IMG/VR virus record: IMGVR_UViG_3300048073_000020
Span: 1-54,245 of that record
Reading direction: 5' to 3' (one strand)
Length of the DNA stretch: 54,245 nucleotides
From: a virus
Taxonomy: Duplodnaviria > Caudoviricetes
The notes under the pieces are model-generated. The model did no database searches, was not told the DNA's origin, and saw only the letters and a list, made by a program, of their open reading frames with translations. Position 1 is the first letter of the stretch, and every line of letters starts with the position of its first letter. Both the position numbers and the translations under genes were made by a program. Shown piece by piece: positions 3,693 to 11,964 of this stretch.

Positions 3693-4091
3693 ATGGGCAT
3701 CCCTTCGTTTCGCGGCCTCGAACGCGCCTTGCTGGCCCTCGTCGTCGTCCTGCTGCTCGGCGTGTTCTTCGCCGGTCGAGCTTCCGCTGCAACCCTATTC
3801 GTCACCGAGTTCGCCGGGCCGCCTTCGGTGTCGGTCTACTACCAAGCGGCCAACGCCCCCGCCCTCGTCGAGCAGACCGTCGCCATTGGTGGCGCGAGCG
3901 TGCAGTCGGCCGTCTTCGGCAGCTCGACCAAGCTCGTGCGCGTGCATGCCGACGTAGCCTGCAGCGTGGTCGTAGGCGGCACGAACCCCACCGCCACCGC
4001 CACGAGCATGCGACTAGCTGCAGGGCAAACCGAATACTTCGTCGTCATTCCCGGCCAGCGTCTTGCGGTGATCGTCGCGGCGGTGCCGTGA
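3693..4091 (+). CDS. signal-peptide-bearing beta-rich protein
   Basis: Hydrophobic N-terminus ending ASA-A; mature part LVRVHADVACSVVVGGTNPTATATSMRLAAGQTEYF. Confidence 0.7.
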   Translation: MGIPSFRGLERALLALVVVLLLGVFFAGRASAATLFVTEFAGPPSVSVYYQAANAPALVEQTVAIGGASVQSAVFGSSTKLVRVHADVACSVVVGGTNPTATATSMRLAAGQTEYFVVIPGQRLAVIVAAVP

Positions 4092-4324
4092 TGCATGCCG
4101 CAGCCCGCATCGTGCTCGGGCTCGTAGTGGCAACGCTGCTCGTCGGCGTGTTCGCTATCGCGCACGGGCAAAGCGTAGGCCGCGTCGGTGGCGTGGGCGC
4201 TTTCATGAGCCCCAAGCCTGCCGGCGGTGGCACGCCCGCCAACACGTTTCGCATCGTCACCGAAGGCAATGCGAACTTAGTCACAGAATCTAGCGTCGTC
4301 ATTGAAACCGAGGCTGCCCCATGA
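4088..4324 (+). CDS. small signal-peptide-bearing protein
   Basis: RIVLGLVVATLLVGVFAIAHG-Q; overlaps both neighbours by 4 bp. Confidence 0.6.
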   Translation: MMHAAARIVLGLVVATLLVGVFAIAHGQSVGRVGGVGAFMSPKPAGGGTPANTFRIVTEGNANLVTESSVVIETEAAP

Positions 4325-4863
4325 AACGTTTTGCATTACTGCTGCTTTCGGCAGCCCTTACCCTTGCGGCTGGCATCGCGGTCGCGCAGGTCAAAATATC
4401 CGAGCTGCCGGCGGCTGGCGCTCTTGCAGGCACCGAGCCCGTTCCTATCGTGCAAGGCGGCGCAACGGTGCGCACGACCGCTACGGCTATCGCTGCGCTC
4501 GCCGGGGGCACGACCCTCGCCTCGGGCATTTGGACGCCGACCTGCACGCTAGGCTCGAACGCCGAAGCCTGCACGGGCGTTGCGGGCGTTTACCTGCGCG
4601 TCGGCTCGTCGGTGCAGTGGTCGGCGCGTCTGAACGCTGACAGTTCGGGCAGCGCTACCTTTACCGTCAATATCTCGCTGCCGGTCGCGTCGAACTTCGC
4701 AGCCGTTACCGACGGCATAGGTACATGCGTCTCGCCCACGACCTCGGCCAGCGTTGGCGGCGCGCAGGCTGACGGCACGGCCGATAACCTTGCGATTAAC
4801 TTCGTAGCGACGCAGACAAGCTCGCAGACGTATTACTGCTCGGGCACCTACCGCGTGATATGA
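4321..4863 (+). CDS. exported fibre-like protein
   Basis: Signal peptide MKRFALLLLSAALTLAAGIAVA-Q; KISELPAA...VPIVQGGAT fibre-like N-terminal motif; 4 Cys. Confidence 0.7.
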   Translation: MKRFALLLLSAALTLAAGIAVAQVKISELPAAGALAGTEPVPIVQGGATVRTTATAIAALAGGTTLASGIWTPTCTLGSNAEACTGVAGVYLRVGSSVQWSARLNADSSGSATFTVNISLPVASNFAAVTDGIGTCVSPTTSASVGGAQADGTADNLAINFVATQTSSQTYYCSGTYRVI

Positions 4864-4901
4864 TCGGTGCGGGATATCCCCACACCAAAGGAAGCACGCA
4901 A

Positions 4902-5330
4902 ATGTTGAAACGTTTTCTACTGGCCCTCGCTGCCGCAGCCGTCACTCTCGTAGCCGCCCCCGCATCTGCCGCCACCGCCGCGCTTAACGTGTCGTGGACG
5001 CTGCCGACGCAAGGCTGCGTGAACCCGCCGAGCTGCACGCAGAATGTGCCGTTAACCGGCGAGTATGCGTTGACGGCTATCAAGCTCTACGTATCGACGA
5101 GCCCGATTGCTGATACGTCCACGATGACACCCTCGGCCACGTTCGGCGCGGGTGTGACGACTGCAACGTACAACGCCACCGTAGCGAACGGCGATACGCT
5201 GTACGTGCGGGTCAAGGCTACGAATGCGTTCGGCGACTCGGCGTTCTCGACCGAGGTAGCCAAGCTCGTGACCGTGCCAGCCCGCCCCGGCGTGCCGACC
5301 TCGGTTACGGTGACGCTGACCATTACCTAG
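4902..5330 (+). CDS. exported fibronectin type III-like protein
   Basis: Signal peptide ending ASA-A; VSWTLPT...YVRVKATNAFGDSAFS FN3 pattern; RBS AAGGA. Confidence 0.75.
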   Translation: MLKRFLLALAAAAVTLVAAPASAATAALNVSWTLPTQGCVNPPSCTQNVPLTGEYALTAIKLYVSTSPIADTSTMTPSATFGAGVTTATYNATVANGDTLYVRVKATNAFGDSAFSTEVAKLVTVPARPGVPTSVTVTLTIT

Positions 5331-5357
5331 CGTTCGATTCGCTGCTATGCTCGTCAG

Positions 5358-5387
5358 GGCCGCCCTAATCCGGCGGCCTTGTCTTTT
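5358..5387 (+). terminator. probable rho-independent terminator
   Basis: GGCCGCC-ctaatcc-GGCGGCC followed by TTGTCTTTT. Confidence 0.55.
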
Positions 5388-5409
5388 CATAACCCAAGGA
5401 ATCACGCAC

Positions 5410-5796
5410 ATGACGAACGAAGTACAGCAAGTCGAATCGCTACGCATCGCGCGCGGTAAGCTCGCGGGCGCAATCGAGATTTTCGCCCCGATTGGCGTGC
5501 AGCGTGTGAACGCGCTCGAACTGATCGGTGCAAGCCTGATCGAATTCGAGGCCGCCGTGCGCGAAGACGAACGTGCCAAGAGCGGCGACGCGGTGGCCCT
5601 GGCGCAAGCGCAGGCACTCGACGCGCAGGCCGGCGCACACGGCGACCGCGTGGCAGCCGAGGCCGCCTTGCGTGGCGCAGCCGACGCGCAGAATGTCACC
5701 GCTGCCGACCTCACAGCCCCCACACTGACGCCACCGTCGGAAAACATCGCAGTTGAAGAGAAAGCGGCCGACGCCCCGCCGCGCAAGCGCAAGTAA
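5410..5796 (+). CDS. hypothetical Ala-rich protein
   Basis: RBS AAGGA before ATG 5410; directly upstream of terL. Confidence 0.65.
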   Translation: MTNEVQQVESLRIARGKLAGAIEIFAPIGVQRVNALELIGASLIEFEAAVREDERAKSGDAVALAQAQALDAQAGAHGDRVAAEAALRGAADAQNVTAADLTAPTLTPPSENIAVEEKAADAPPRKRK

Positions 5797-5802
5797 TCGG
5801 GC

Positions 5803-7497
5803 ATGAATGCGGTAGTAGCGCCCGCGCCGTTCGATTGGCGGAACCCCGACTATGTGTCGGTGTTCAAGCAGCGAGCGGCACGCCTAGCGAAACTTCGGGC
5901 CGACCCGATGATGCTGCTAGACGTTCGGCGCTACTACCGCACGCACCCCGACGACTTCATCAACGATTGGGGCATCACGGTCGATACGCGCGTCGTTGCG
6001 AAGGGCCGCTCGTCGATAATGCCCCTGCTGCTATGGCCCAAGCAGCGCGAATACGTGCAATGGTTATACAAACGTTGGACGAAGGGCGAAGATGGCGTCG
6101 TCGTCAAGTCTCGCGACGTTGGTATCTCGTGGCTTGCGATGGCGTTCTCGTCAACGCTCGGAATATTCTACGACGATGTTTCTATCGGCTTCGGCAGTGA
6201 AAAGGAAGACAAAGTAGACCGCAGCGGCGACCCCGACTGCTTGTTCTACAAGGGCCGAATGTTTCTTACGTATCTGCCTGCCGAGTTCAACGGCGGGTGG
6301 ACGCTCAAGAGTAACAGCGCGCACATGCGCCTCTCGTTTCCGCTGACGGGCTCGTCAATCACGGGTGAAGCCGGCGACAACATCGGGCGCGGTGGCCGTA
6401 AGGCGTTGTACTTCGTAGACGAATCGGCGCACATCCCGAACCCGAAGGCTATCGACGCTTCGCTTATCGCCAACACCGAGACGCGCATCGATATGTCGAG
6501 CGTTAACGGCATGGCGAATAGTTTCGCCGAGCGTGCCCACAATCCAAACATCGAGCGCTTCGACTTCGCGCTCGAAGACGACCCACGCCGCGACGAGGAA
6601 TATTGGCGCGTCAAGCGTGCGAAGACCGACCCCGTTGTCTTCGCTGCCGAGTACGAGCGCAATTTCTCCGCGTCTATCGAAGGCGTCGTTATCCCGGCGT
6701 TGTGGGTGACGAGTTCGTTAGATGCGCACAAGCGTCTCGGGCTCAAGCCGTCAGGGCTGCGACGTGCCGCAATGGACGTTGCCGACGGTGGCGCGGACGC
6801 GAACGCATACGGCGTTGCAGACGACTTCCTCGTGCAGCATGTTGAATCGTGGAAGGGCTCGGCCGACCTCGATATCTTCCATAGCGTCGAGAAAGCGTTC
6901 CTACTGTCAGACCTGCACGGCCTGCCCGGCTTCCACTACGACGCCGACGGCCTCGGTGCCAGCGTTCGAGGCGACGCGCGCAAGGTCAACGAGAAGCGCA
7001 TCGAGCAGGAAATGCGCGAACTGATCGTCGAGGCGTTCCGGGGCAGCGCCGAGGTGTTCGACCCCGAGCGCATCGTCGAGGGCACCGAACGCAAGGCCGA
7101 AGATTTCTTCGAGAACTTGAAGGCGCAAGCATGGTGGCTGCTGCGTGACCGCTTCCGTTACACGCACCACGTCGTCGAGTATTTCAAGGAACACGGCACG
7201 CTTCCGACCGACTTCGAAATCGAGCGGTTCATCTCGATATCGTCCGAGTTCGCCGAGTCGGCCAAGCTGCGCACCGAACTCTCGCAGCCTGTATGGGCGA
7301 CCTCGAAGCGCGGTAAGGTCATGGTCGATAAGTGCCCGGTCGGCACGAAGACCGAGGTACGCCGGGCCATCAAGTCGCCAAACTTGGCCGACACCGTTAT
7401 GATGCTCTTTGCCCCGTTCCGCCCGGCGATGGTCATCAACCCCGCTATTCTTCAACTCGCGAGCACCGCTGCCCATGTTCCGCAACGTCGCTACTAG
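5803..7497 (+). CDS. terL: terminase large subunit
   Basis: Walker A-like VVKSRDVGISW, Walker B YFVDESAH, nuclease MDVADGG and SPNLADT. Confidence 0.92.
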   Translation: MNAVVAPAPFDWRNPDYVSVFKQRAARLAKLRADPMMLLDVRRYYRTHPDDFINDWGITVDTRVVAKGRSSIMPLLLWPKQREYVQWLYKRWTKGEDGVVVKSRDVGISWLAMAFSSTLGIFYDDVSIGFGSEKEDKVDRSGDPDCLFYKGRMFLTYLPAEFNGGWTLKSNSAHMRLSFPLTGSSITGEAGDNIGRGGRKALYFVDESAHIPNPKAIDASLIANTETRIDMSSVNGMANSFAERAHNPNIERFDFALEDDPRRDEEYWRVKRAKTDPVVFAAEYERNFSASIEGVVIPALWVTSSLDAHKRLGLKPSGLRRAAMDVADGGADANAYGVADDFLVQHVESWKGSADLDIFHSVEKAFLLSDLHGLPGFHYDADGLGASVRGDARKVNEKRIEQEMRELIVEAFRGSAEVFDPERIVEGTERKAEDFFENLKAQAWWLLRDRFRYTHHVVEYFKEHGTLPTDFEIERFISISSEFAESAKLRTELSQPVWATSKRGKVMVDKCPVGTKTEVRRAIKSPNLADTVMMLFAPFRPAMVINPAILQLASTAAHVPQRRY

Positions 7498-9235
7498 TCT
7501 TCGTAACGCCCTGCGCCGATGGCTCGGGGTCGTGGACGCCGCTACCCCCGCCCCCAAGCAGGCCGAGGGCATGAGCATCGCCCACGAGCTTCTAATCAAG
7601 GCCGGCGAGAAAGTGGTACACCGCAAGGTCGAGCCCCCGAAACTATTCCCCGGTGTCGTGCCGGCCTCGACGCAGTTCACTGCCGACCCTGGCGCGCTCG
7701 GGCCGTTCATAGCGGCCGATAGTGAATTGCTCGCCCCTGCATACAGCTACGCAAATCAAGCGTACTGCGGCCTCGGGTTTCCGGGCTACGCCTACCTTGC
7801 CGAACTGTCGCAGCGATCCGAGTATCGAAGCCCGAGCGAAACGATTGCCAGCGAAATGACACGCGAATGGATTGCGCTAGTAGTCAAGGGCGCTGCACGC
7901 CGCGACAACAAGCCGCAAGACAAGCAGCGCATGCAAGACGACGACCTCGGCGAAGACGCGTTGCCCGAGGAAGCGCCGACCGAAGGCGACGACGAGGGCC
8001 AGGACGACGAGACGCAAAAGAAAATCGAATTGCTGACGGAAGCAATGGAAGAATTCAAGGTGCGCGAAGCCCTCGGCAAGTGCGCCGAACTCGACGGGCT
8101 ATTCGGCCGTGCGCAGATTTTCATCGACATAGACACCGCCGGCCGCGAACGTGACGAAGTGCGGCAGCTTCCTCTCGTGATTTCGAAGGAAACAATTAAG
8201 AAAGGTTCGCTTAAAGCGTTGACCGTGGTCGAGCCTATTTGGACGACGCCATTTACATACAACGCGAGCGACCCCACTGCCCCCGATTTCTACAAGCCGA
8301 AAGCGTGGTTTATCCTCGGCAAGCGCACGCACGCGTCGCGGCTGCTTACTTTCATCATGCGCGAAGTGCCGGATATCCTGAAACCGGCTTACAACTTCGG
8401 CGGCTTGAGCATGACGCAGTTGATGGAATCGTATGTATTCCGGTGGCTGCGCACGTCGAACTCGGTCAGCGACCTGATTCACAATTTTAGCGTGATGGCC
8501 CTCTCGACGGACATGACGCAGATTCTACAGGGCAAGGCTGACAAGCCCGGCGGTCTGCTCGACCGCGCGCGTTTGTTTGTAGCGACTCGCGACAATCAGG
8601 GCTTGACCCTGCTCGACAAAGACAAGGAAGAACTAAACGCGGTGAACGTGCCGCTGTCGGGGCTCGAAGGCTTGCAAGCGCAGTCGCAAGAGCAAATGGC
8701 CGGCCCTTCGCACATCCCGCTCGTGAAGCTGCTCGGCATCACGCCTACCGGCTTGAACGCATCGAGCGAGGGGGAAATCAAAGTTTTCTACGACTTCGTG
8801 CGCGCATGTCAGCAGAAGTTTTACGCCGAGCACTTGAATACAATTCTGCAGCTCTTGCAGCTTCACCTATTCGGCGAGGTTGATGATTCTATCGGCTTCG
8901 AGTTTAAGCCGCTGTCGAGCCCGACAGTCAAAGAACTCGCCGAGATTCGCAAGGCGAACGCCGATACCGCTGCCGTGTACATCGACAAGGGTGTGATATC
9001 GCCCGACGAAGTGCGCGCGAAAGTTAACAACGACCCCGAATCGGGATACGACAACCTCACGGGCGACGCACCCCCACCGCCAACGCAGGTTGACGCCGAG
9101 CACGGTGCCGAGCTTGACGAGCAAGCGGCCGGCGCTGCGCACGAGCGTGGGGAAGAATCGGCCGAGGCTGCACACGAACGGCAGCTCGAAGCCGACAAGG
9201 CGGCGGCGAAGAACAAGCCGAAGGCGACCGCGTGA
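7475..9235 (+). CDS. portal protein (DUF1073-like)
   Basis: Follows terL; IPLVKLLGITPTGLNASSEGE motif. Confidence 0.85.
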   Translation: MFRNVATSLRNALRRWLGVVDAATPAPKQAEGMSIAHELLIKAGEKVVHRKVEPPKLFPGVVPASTQFTADPGALGPFIAADSELLAPAYSYANQAYCGLGFPGYAYLAELSQRSEYRSPSETIASEMTREWIALVVKGAARRDNKPQDKQRMQDDDLGEDALPEEAPTEGDDEGQDDETQKKIELLTEAMEEFKVREALGKCAELDGLFGRAQIFIDIDTAGRERDEVRQLPLVISKETIKKGSLKALTVVEPIWTTPFTYNASDPTAPDFYKPKAWFILGKRTHASRLLTFIMREVPDILKPAYNFGGLSMTQLMESYVFRWLRTSNSVSDLIHNFSVMALSTDMTQILQGKADKPGGLLDRARLFVATRDNQGLTLLDKDKEELNAVNVPLSGLEGLQAQSQEQMAGPSHIPLVKLLGITPTGLNASSEGEIKVFYDFVRACQQKFYAEHLNTILQLLQLHLFGEVDDSIGFEFKPLSSPTVKELAEIRKANADTAAVYIDKGVISPDEVRAKVNNDPESGYDNLTGDAPPPPTQVDAEHGAELDEQAAGAAHERGEESAEAAHERQLEADKAAAKNKPKATA

Positions 9236-10473
9236 AGATTCAACGCGCGCGGCTAATGGCCCCCACGGGGCGGGCCGTTATCATCGACCCCGTGTGGCCT
9301 AACGCGGGCGTCGAGGCGTGGTACAGGGCGCAGCTCGATAAAATGATTGCCGAGATGTATCACGACTCGCGCGCCGTGATTCTTCCCGCTGCCGAGAACA
9401 CGCCCGCCATCATCGCGCAAGACGCCGCGCTGCCCGCTACGGCAGCCGGTATCCTGTTTCGTTGTCGGCATTTGTATCTAATCCTGCAGCGTGCCGACGG
9501 TTCCGGGTGGGGCTTGCCCGGTGGCAAGATCGAGCCCGGCGAATCGGCCGAGGAAGCTGCGCGGCGCGAGACTTGGGAAGAATTGCGATACATACATCGC
9601 GGCCCGCTCAAGTTCCGCACGCTGCACAAGTTCAAGTCGGTGCGCTTTGCAACCTACGAAGCCGAACTCGACGACACGTTCGTACCTACGCTCGACCGCG
9701 AGCACTCGGGCTACCTATGGACAACGCTAGGCGGCGCGCTGCTGCGTGATTTGCACCCCGGTTTGCGTCTCACGCTGACGGGTGCGTCAGACTCGCCCGA
9801 GATGGCCGCCGACGCTACGCCTACGAAGGAACTCGAACGGCTGCTCGAAAAGTGGGGCCGCAAGTGGATGGCCCGATTTACCGTGATGGCCGATAAGTTA
9901 TCGCTCGACTTCTCGTCGAAGAGTCAGGCAGCCACGCAAACCGCTATGCAATCGGCGTTTCGCAAGGCCGGCTTTACGGTGCCGTTCAAGCCCACGCGCA
10001 AGAGCATCGAAGCTTATAAGGCTGTCGCTGCCGAGCAAGTCGGTTTAATCAAGAGCATTGCGCAGAAATACCATACAGACGTGCAGACGCAGGTCTGGCA
10101 GTCGGTGAAGCGCGGCGCAGACTTGAAGACCCTCTCGCAGCAGCTCGAAAAAGACTACGGCGTAACGCGTCGTCGTGCCGCGTTGATTGCTCGCGATCAG
10201 AATGCGAAGGCTAAGGCGACTATCGAAGCCGTCAGGCATCAAGAAATCGGCATCAAGCAAGGTATATGGATGCACTCGAAGGCCGGCAAGGAACCACGGC
10301 CAACGCATCAAGCAATGAATAACAAGCTCTACGATTTGAACAAGGGCATGTGGGATAGCGACGAGCAGAAATACGTTCACCCCGGCGAGCTTATAAACTG
10401 CCGCTGCACGATGCGCCCTTACATCCCTGGCTTCGAGGGCGCTATGCCGCAATGGGATATTACGCAAACATGA
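9232..10473 (+). CDS. MuF/SPP1 gp7-like minor head protein with inserted Nudix hydrolase domain
   Basis: RAALIARDQ, WMHS..EPRPTH, HPGELINCRC MuF motifs; Nudix box GGKIEPGESAEEAARRETWEEL. Confidence 0.85.
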   Translation: MKIQRARLMAPTGRAVIIDPVWPNAGVEAWYRAQLDKMIAEMYHDSRAVILPAAENTPAIIAQDAALPATAAGILFRCRHLYLILQRADGSGWGLPGGKIEPGESAEEAARRETWEELRYIHRGPLKFRTLHKFKSVRFATYEAELDDTFVPTLDREHSGYLWTTLGGALLRDLHPGLRLTLTGASDSPEMAADATPTKELERLLEKWGRKWMARFTVMADKLSLDFSSKSQAATQTAMQSAFRKAGFTVPFKPTRKSIEAYKAVAAEQVGLIKSIAQKYHTDVQTQVWQSVKRGADLKTLSQQLEKDYGVTRRRAALIARDQNAKAKATIEAVRHQEIGIKQGIWMHSKAGKEPRPTHQAMNNKLYDLNKGMWDSDEQKYVHPGELINCRCTMRPYIPGFEGAMPQWDITQT

Positions 10474-10709
10474 GCGAGCCCAACTACAAAGCCGCCTACG
10501 AGCGGTTGCTGCGTTCGATGCAGGGTATTCAAGCCTGCGGCACGCGTTGCCCGTGCTGCGAGATGCTTTCACGCATCGCCGACAACGCCGTCAAAGAGGC
10601 ACCACTGCTGCTCGATGTTCCTGCAGGAACACCGACCGACCCGCCGAGGGTAGGAACGCCCGACCCGATGCTCGAAATTCCACGTTTCTTGCGGTCGGGC
10701 GACGACTAG
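10470..10709 (+). CDS. 79-aa protein with Cys cluster, Pro-rich linker and FtsZ-tail-like C-terminus
   Basis: ATGA overlap with MuF stop; ends MLEIPRFLRSGDD. Confidence 0.6.
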   Translation: MSEPNYKAAYERLLRSMQGIQACGTRCPCCEMLSRIADNAVKEAPLLLDVPAGTPTDPPRVGTPDPMLEIPRFLRSGDD

Positions 10710-10725
10710 CCTTACACTCGCGCCA

Positions 10726-11964
10726 ATGTCCGTCGTAAACCTAACCCTTGACCAAATGCTCGCGTTTGACCGCGCGCTCGACAGCGTGGGGATGGAACGC
10801 GGCTTAGCCTTCGATAAGCAGACCTTGCGCAAGTTCGACGTAGACGGCCGCATGCACGTCGAACGCTGCAACATCTCGAAGGCGAACGTGTGCCCCTACT
10901 TCGGTCGAGAAATCCCGAATTGGGAAGCGTTGCAGCTCGACCCGAACCGCATTTACAGGCTGTACCGCGACCCCGCCGAACTACAGCGCGGCGCGGATTC
11001 GTTCAAGAACCTGCAACTGCTGATGTATCACACGGCCGTCAACGCGGCCGACCCGAAGACCGCCGTAACGGTCGGGTGCATCGGTAGCGATGTTTCTTTC
11101 GATTCCCCCTACCTGCGCTCGTCTATCGCGGTGTGGACCGACGAAGCAATCAAGCTTATCGAGTCCAAGCAGCAAGCCGAGCTTTCGTGCAGCTACCGTT
11201 ACCGGGCAGACATGACGCCGGGGCTAACCCCCGAGGGTGTTGCTTACGACGGCGTGATGCGCGATATTATGGGGAATCATGTAGCATTGGTCGAAAAAGG
11301 CCGCGCCGGCCCCGACGTGTACGTTAGCGACTCTCACCCCTTGGAGCTTCCGAAAATGAAACGCCCTTACCTCGTCGCCGCCGTCGCCGCCGCGCTCGGC
11401 AGCGCCATTGCCCTGACCGACGACCAAAAGCTCGCGCTCGACGCGGCGATGTGCAAGGCCGACGACGAGGCCGAGGAAATCAAGAAAAAGAAAGCCGCCG
11501 AAGACGCCGCGAAAGCCGCGCTCGACGCTTCCGCAGCCGTCACCCCTGGCCCGAAGGCCGGCGAGACGGGCAAGAGCATCGTCGCCGATGCGGCTGCGAT
11601 GGATGCGGCGATTCGCTCGCATGGTTTCATCACGAAAGCCGACGCCGAGCGCTTGGCGAACGATGCGGCGGCGTCTGCCGTTGCTGCGGTCAATGCGCTG
11701 CATAAGGCGCGCGAAGACGTGAAACCCCTCGTGGGCATCGTCGCGATGGATTCGGCCGAGGCCGTCTACCGCTTCGCCCTGACGCACGAAAAGGTTGCGC
11801 TCGATGGTGTGCCGCCGGCCGCCTTCGGTGCGCTCGTCGAGCAGGTCAAGGCGCGCAAGGCCGGTGGCCCCGCCATCGTCACCACAACGCCGAAGCTTGC
11901 CGCCGACGCTGCGAACGCTGCGCAGGCTGCAATTCCGGGGCTCGGTCGTATCCAAGTCGCCTAA
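10726..11964 (+). CDS. prohead protease/scaffold (DUF2213-like)
   Basis: ELSCSY, NHVALVEKGRAG; Ala-rich scaffold-like C-terminal half. Confidence 0.85.
   Translation: MSVVNLTLDQMLAFDRALDSVGMERGLAFDKQTLRKFDVDGRMHVERCNISKANVCPYFGREIPNWEALQLDPNRIYRLYRDPAELQRGADSFKNLQLLMYHTAVNAADPKTAVTVGCIGSDVSFDSPYLRSSIAVWTDEAIKLIESKQQAELSCSYRYRADMTPGLTPEGVAYDGVMRDIMGNHVALVEKGRAGPDVYVSDSHPLELPKMKRPYLVAAVAAALGSAIALTDDQKLALDAAMCKADDEAEEIKKKKAAEDAAKAALDASAAVTPGPKAGETGKSIVADAAAMDAAIRSHGFITKADAERLANDAAASAVAAVNALHKAREDVKPLVGIVAMDSAEAVYRFALTHEKVALDGVPPAAFGALVEQVKARKAGGPAIVTTTPKLAADAANAAQAAIPGLGRIQVA

Follow-up and report, generated by a model that had tools for sequence, protein, structure and literature searches.

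An uncultured phage has been found to carry, as an accessory gene within its head block, a 79-aa protein (P0001) that consists of three modules -- a cysteine-bearing helical hairpin, a floppy proline-rich linker and, at the C-terminus, a copy of the FtsZ peptide as a short linear motif. The tail of P0001 is equivalent to real FtsZ ends. FtsA, ZipA, MinC, SlmA, ZapD and ClpX all read one FtsZ tail peptide.

The P0001 gene and its locus

The window, meaning the whole stretch of DNA that was analysed, is 54,245 bases long and represents an entire IMG/VR virus record, complete by CheckV (100%). It encodes a family-A DNA polymerase, a helicase, a primase and an exonuclease; no tRNA was found in the 54,245-base record and no integrase among its annotated ORFs. 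The P0001 ORF lies at 10470..10709 on the + strand (stop codon included), in agreement with the earlier note as to coordinates and the last 13 residues. Its ATG shares an ATGA with the stop of the gene upstream (9232..10473, +), which encodes a fusion of NUDIX and Mu-F-like head morphogenesis domains (Pfam NUDIX 3.6e-16, Phage_Mu_F 2.4e-15; phrog_324 9.5e-67), and 16 nt separate its end from the gene for a DUF2213 head maturation protease/scaffold (10726..11964, +; Pfam DUF2213 2.2e-48; phrog_2229 4.9e-115). The order of the head block is terminase, portal (7409-9235, upstream of the fusion), NUDIX + Mu-F-like fusion, P0001, DUF2213 protease/scaffold, cement-like protein and major capsid protein. 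The NUDIX hydrolase domain is N-terminal (residues 69-177) in the Mu-F-like protein encoded at 9232-10473 (+); this fusion is kept in the close relative L006, and Mu-F is found alone in L007 and L008.

The P0001 ORF as a whole is supported by its GC content by codon position (0.62/0.51/0.71, resembling its neighbours, with 0.60/0.46/0.71 for the Mu-F gene), by four close homologues and by the frame kept in a contig of another study. From an alternative in-frame ATG upstream, at 10452, the product would have 85 aa; the start at 10470 is more likely, because T stands in place of that A in this contig (run X2) and the homologues begin at the 10470 position. No strong terminator or promoter-like site was detected on the + strand within 9232-11964, and since no convincing site of this kind splits P0001 from the head genes, the protein is probably made late. 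The late expression that had been claimed is thus plausible, as a deduction from the head-operon position rather than an established fact.

P0001 falls in no Pfam family at E <= 0.01 and in no PHROG family. A tblastn search of 50,697 phage records gave no convincing match (best E 0.03, to the N-terminal part only), and a protein atlas search gave a top score of 0.77 and no lead.

Modular structure of P0001

The AlphaFold2 model of P0001, built on a 15-row alignment, has a mean pLDDT of 69.5 and shows helices at residues 3-22 and 28-48, forming a hairpin with the cysteines at its turn, as well as a short helix at 72-74. The N-terminal helical hairpin domain covers aa 1-51 (10470..10622, +). The CxxxCxCC that had been noticed from the sequence in an N-terminal helix is indeed present, as C23-x3-C27-x-C29-C30 (10536..10559, +; C23-G-T-R-C27-P-C29-C30 in P0001), and lies at the hairpin turn; C23, C27 and C30 are invariant in 15 sequences and C29 is nearly so.

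Next comes the linker, aa 52-66 (10623..10667, +), which is predicted to be disordered, with pLDDT < 50 throughout. Its proline-rich character, also claimed in the earlier note, is evident in the 7 prolines among the 22 residues from 45 to 66. The five members of the P0001 family differ by 0-13 residues in the length of this linker and have almost no common sequence in it, and the X2 contig has in-frame indels here. The FtsZ-tail-like peptide itself occupies aa 67-79 (10668..10706, +), and the last twelve residues read L-E-I-P-R-F-L-R-S-G-D-D.

A PDB profile search gave a marginal local match of 28 residues (E 0.0032) to the CxxC region of thioredoxin-like 1ilo_A, in which the G-T-x-C-x-x-C-x-M stretch would place C27 and C30 as a CxxC beginning helix 2; this match hints at redox or metal chemistry in the hairpin. 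A thioredoxin fold of the MtH895 type was considered for P0001 and rejected, the model being a two-helix hairpin for which Foldseek found no match in the PDB at E <= 0.001.

Relationship of the tail to FtsZ

The E. coli FtsZ tail is given in PMC4117426, where I374 and L378 are described as critical for ZipA, FtsA and MinC. Set against that tail, as it appears in the accessible part of the paper, P0001 is equal at 7 of the last 12 positions, with D to E in addition, in the same register, and includes the equivalents of I374 and L378. A wider sample of FtsZ ends was drawn from a class-level set around a Dokdonella genome; 29 ends were read from 30 loci (one locus being without a full ORF) and were compared with the P0001 tail by eye. 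P-x-[FY]-L-R is present in 28 of the 29 and L-D-I-P-x-F-L-R in 22, and in 21 the stop comes four residues after R, as it does in P0001. P0001 has the FtsZ peptide core L-[DE]-I-P-x-F-L-R, which comes after a disordered linker and lies at the very C-terminus, followed only by a short variable stretch.

The relationship can also be followed in the other direction. A DNA pattern, L-[DE]-I-P-x-F-L-R-x-G-x-D-stop (Leu as CTN), was drawn up solely from the residues that the phage family conserves, and it matched nine metagenome stretches. Five of them are full FtsZ genes (Pfam Tubulin + FtsZ_C) and one is a 24-aa contig-end fragment that is probably an FtsZ C-terminus; the remaining three, 97-99 aa long, are small non-FtsZ ORFs of the same build whose N-terminal parts are different. 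The mimicry of the FtsZ C-terminal peptide proposed in the earlier note thus holds in sequence, register and linker architecture, and the derived pattern retrieves FtsZ ends.

There are nevertheless differences between the phage tail and the sampled ends. Where P0001 has E, R and S-G-D, all 29 have D or N, then A or T, then mostly R/K-Q-A, and E, R or G was found at these positions in none of the 29. In none of the 401 genomes of a Pseudomonadota sample was the string I-P-x-F-L-R-x-G-x-D-stop found; every FtsZ in the samples searched from this group differs from P0001 at the x position and in the last four residues. Metagenomes do contain FtsZ ends that have E and G at the phage-tail positions. 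The nearest isolated phages, with a capsid/polymerase identity of only 40-58%, have as hosts Aeromonas, Klebsiella, Pseudomonas, Ralstonia, Burkholderia and similar; the relatives of this phage infect Pseudomonadota, the group with no exact-pattern genome among the 401. It is possible that the tail has been tuned to receptors instead of being copied from a host gene.

With the FtsZ linker and peptide (E. coli 370-383) P0001 shares a disordered linker of variable length, L-[DE]-I-P-x-F-L-R and then D four residues on, but it is phage-encoded, has only 79 aa, carries no GTPase or FtsZ_C domain, and has R at x and an S-G-D-D end. Membership of the FtsZ/tubulin family was accordingly rejected for P0001: the record has no match to Tubulin/FtsZ PF00091 at E <= 0.1 and none to FtsZ_C PF12327. 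Among the FtsZ genes encountered, three have two tail-like motifs (L051 8415-9632, -; L053 257-1474, +; L054 7635-8858, -), with an internal L-D-[IV]-P-T-W-Q-R-R and a terminal L-D-I-P-T-F-L-R-R-G-T-D; their contigs are 75% GC.

Conservation of the tail

A word-indexed search yielded four close homologues of P0001, 75-90% identical to it in alignment A1. The hairpin is almost invariant across P0001 and these four, and all five family members agree at L68, I70, P71, F73, L74, R75, G77 and D79, which make up 8 of the 13 positions in the tail. The core of the motif is therefore kept in homologues, a check that the earlier note had called for, despite the variation of 0-13 residues in the linker before it, although this conservation is of limited depth because the tail-bearing homologues are close. 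Back-translated I-P-x-F-L-R has a single match in the 54,245 bases of both strands, the P0001 tail, where 0.03 would be expected; a match occurred in 3 of 100 shuffles of the window.

The X2 contig (6,164 letters) spans P0001, with 78 substitutions and 15 gaps over 801 aligned bases. Among the differences listed, the gaps within the P0001 ORF total +9 bases, and the tail therefore stays in frame. Runs X3 and X4 gave coverage of a few bins only, outside the P0001 ORF. A search of a database of 5.8 billion entries for longer proteins sharing P0001 residues 40-79 returned 37 candidates, none at E <= 10, a result that is uninformative for a 12-residue motif, and a viral-contig scan with alignment A1 gave no match. 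Three loci from a genome-contig scan were discarded as chance matches to the cysteine motif inside other frames or genes.

The hairpin family

As judged by sequence comparison, the hairpin is a phage family of its own and the tail a clade-specific addition to it. An exhaustive library search gave 14 proteins at E <= 0.001, 12 of which, 41-85 aa long, share the hairpin only and have no FtsZ-like tail; the family signature is G-I-A-x-C-A-T-x-C-x-C-C-x-M, and the hairpin is carried by 10 viral loci. In L006, L007 and L008 the hairpin gene, again without the tail, lies between the Mu-F gene and the DUF2213 protease gene. In three unrelated viral contigs it is directly downstream of a metallophosphoesterase gene (phrog_221), the metallophosphoesterase/hairpin loci being L013 3986-5002, L014 262-1209 and L015 4036-4908; with this neighbour, and with the NUDIX fusion as neighbour in the window, the hairpin family may be linked to phosphohydrolases. 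In the related phage Amjad_SA the protease gene comes immediately after the Mu-F gene, and there is no intervening ORF. The P0001 gene is best regarded as an accessory insert, since the hairpin family exists without the tail and Amjad_SA has no ORF at this position. The occurrence of the family at the same locus without the tail also implies that the primary role of P0001 may be unrelated to FtsZ, and its core role is probably something other than FtsZ-tail docking.

Other carriers of the tail

The earlier note had suggested searching phage sequences for L[DE]IPxFLR at the C-terminus. This was done in viral contigs with a looser pattern than that used for the metagenomes, L-[DE]-I-P-x-F-L-R followed by 4 codons and a stop, and 30 stretches matched. 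Six of them end ORFs of 96-558 aa that have unrelated N-terminal parts: by Pfam, L026 carries an ASCH domain, L030 an MT-A70 methyltransferase and L042 a DUF6900, while L019, L033 and L038 fall in no family; one carrier shows a Lar-like zinc ribbon, below the cut-off. Codon-position GC supports coding for all six. For the three non-FtsZ ORFs from the metagenomes its support is clear for L055, moderate for L056 and ambiguous for L052. The reversed motif, used as a control in the viral contigs, had 4 matches, and at none of them does it close an ORF of >= 60 aa in register. No further gene is common to the carrier contigs and the window, and the nameable neighbours of these carriers are mostly DNA-metabolism genes, unlike the head genes around P0001.

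The other 24 viral matches were left out; they lie in open frames of 17-72 codons and belong mostly to four repeated sequence families. One near-identical short sequence recurs in eight contigs (L017, L018, L021, L025, L034, L035, L041 and L045) and a second in seven (L020, L028, L031, L037, L040, L043 and L044), and both read L-D-I-P-x-F-L-R then hydrophobic residues in one frame. The open frames here have 36-48 codons, many without a start codon, and these recurring sequences probably represent either non-coding DNA that is conserved or a gene read in another frame.

Possible roles of the tail

Matches to Tubulin/FtsZ, FtsZ_C, FtsA, ZipA_C and MinC_C are all absent from the record, complete by CheckV (100%), and whichever known receptor the tail has must accordingly be encoded by the host. 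Our tentative proposal, drawn from the sequence, is that the P0001 tail would dock on such host FtsZ-tail receptors, compete for the anchors and thereby stop division of the infected cell. The tail would enter the pockets of FtsA and ZipA where present, and possibly those of MinC, SlmA or ZapD; produced in quantity alongside the head proteins, P0001 would compete with FtsZ filaments for their membrane anchors, the Z ring would be loosened or blocked, and the infected cell would stop dividing during virion assembly. In the accessible parts of the sources, affinities of 20-81 uM are given for free FtsZ tail peptides (PMC4117426), and FtsZ fragments 354-383 are described as inhibitory in E. coli (PMC10769210, citing Savinov et al.). 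Because free tail peptides bind so weakly, the proposed effect would need a high copy number of P0001 or oligomerisation of the hairpin. The low affinities speak against a simple decoy, as do the existence of the hairpin family apart from the tail and the presence of the tail on a methyltransferase and an ASCH protein, for which an address label would be the better fit. We would also suggest, guardedly, that copying of the FtsZ tail could be a portable and recurrent phage strategy, in which the motif would pass from one unrelated phage protein to another as a plug for FtsZ-tail receptors of the host divisome; grafted here onto a cysteine hairpin of the head module, it would couple virion assembly to an arrest of division or to targeting of the divisome.

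One other possibility, which we consider rather unlikely but which deserves weight, is that the tail acts as an address label, docking on FtsZ-tail receptors so as to bring its carrier, in this case the cysteine hairpin with anything bound to it, to the inner membrane face or the division site, with any effect on division being incidental. The tail is also found on enzymes and on domains of nucleic-acid-binding type in other phages (MT-A70, ASCH and, below the cut-off, the Lar-like zinc ribbon), and for that reason such a role would fit at least as well as that of an inhibitor; it would also suit a hairpin family that is conserved without the tail and has a role of its own, and the low affinity of a single peptide (20-81 uM according to the accessible part of PMC4117426). 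There is, however, no known reason for a head-module protein or a DNA methyltransferase to be at the divisome, and the small carriers without recognisable activity (L019, L033, L038 and L055) look more like plain decoys. It seems improbable that the tail binds some other partner, such as a phage head-assembly protein, and that its likeness to FtsZ is convergent or coincidental. The setting of the P0001 gene among head-morphogenesis genes would be in keeping with a partner of this kind, as would the x position and last four residues, which differ from the sampled FtsZ ends; yet the syntenic L006-L008 retain the neighbouring head genes and do without the tail, the family-derived pattern gives FtsZ ends in 5-6 of its 9 matches, and the tail is also present in phages that have no further gene in common with the window.

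Two further readings would rest on analogy with FtsZ itself. By the one, which we think quite doubtful, the tail would act on FtsZ near the GTPase site and poison polymerisation; the accessible part of PMC10769210 combines an AlphaFold-predicted binding of fragments 354-383 to that site with inhibition in vivo, but the mode of binding of the fragments is a prediction only. By the other, for which we see very little likelihood, the tail would be a ClpXP degron that times the lifetime of P0001 or titrates the protease. ClpX recognition signals include the FtsZ C-terminus, according to PMC8138137 and PMC3983244 as far as accessible, but in E. coli ClpX is said to need R379 and K380 together with the variable four residues at the end (PMC3983244), whereas the P0001 family keeps the R, has S at the K position in 4 of 5 members, and has an acidic residue or N where FtsZ has A382.

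Comparison with known systems

If P0001 competes for anchors as proposed, it would resemble lambda Kil, T7 Gp0.4, P1 Icd and Rac KilR, the division inhibitors of phages and prophages, in being a small phage protein that stops cytokinesis (PMC3961180, PMC11897509, 10.1101/2025.01.07.631774). Those proteins, however, are reported to act on FtsZ assembly or to bind FtsZ, and the accessible portions of these sources describe no copy of the FtsZ tail in any of them. P0001 was rejected as a member of a described inhibitor family (Kil, Gp0.4, Icd or similar), there being no Pfam, PHROG or convincing tblastn match. Dominant-negative C-terminal fragments of FtsZ are alike in that a free FtsZ tail in cells inhibits growth (PMC10769210, in its accessible part), but they are artificial pieces of a host gene, whereas P0001 is a natural phage gene with the motif on an unrelated domain. 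The literature searched on phage division inhibitors and the FtsZ tail, which included few subscription journals, describes in its accessible parts no phage protein that copies the FtsZ tail.

Mimicry of short linear motifs is well known in eukaryotic viruses. If our proposal for P0001 is true, this would be motif mimicry of the bacterial division machinery, which within the literature searched has not been described before; a natural FtsZ-tail decoy would act one step after FtsZ assembly, the target of the known phage inhibitors, and would offer a simple genetic tool for telling the formation of FtsZ filaments apart from their anchoring. As the motif has a length of 12 residues and recurs on many unrelated carriers, peptides and point mutants would allow a direct test of the idea, which also points to a rule for finding host-interaction motifs in phage 'dark matter'. 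The other carriers have the same C-terminal motif and register, and most are small with a linker before the tail; they differ from P0001 in their unrelated N-terminal parts, and their contigs have no further gene in common with this phage. One of them, the small ORF of L038, ends in an exact E. coli-type tail, and near it lie genes for a reverse transcriptase and a large DNA methyltransferase, at 3978-5420 (-) and 8847-10793 (-).
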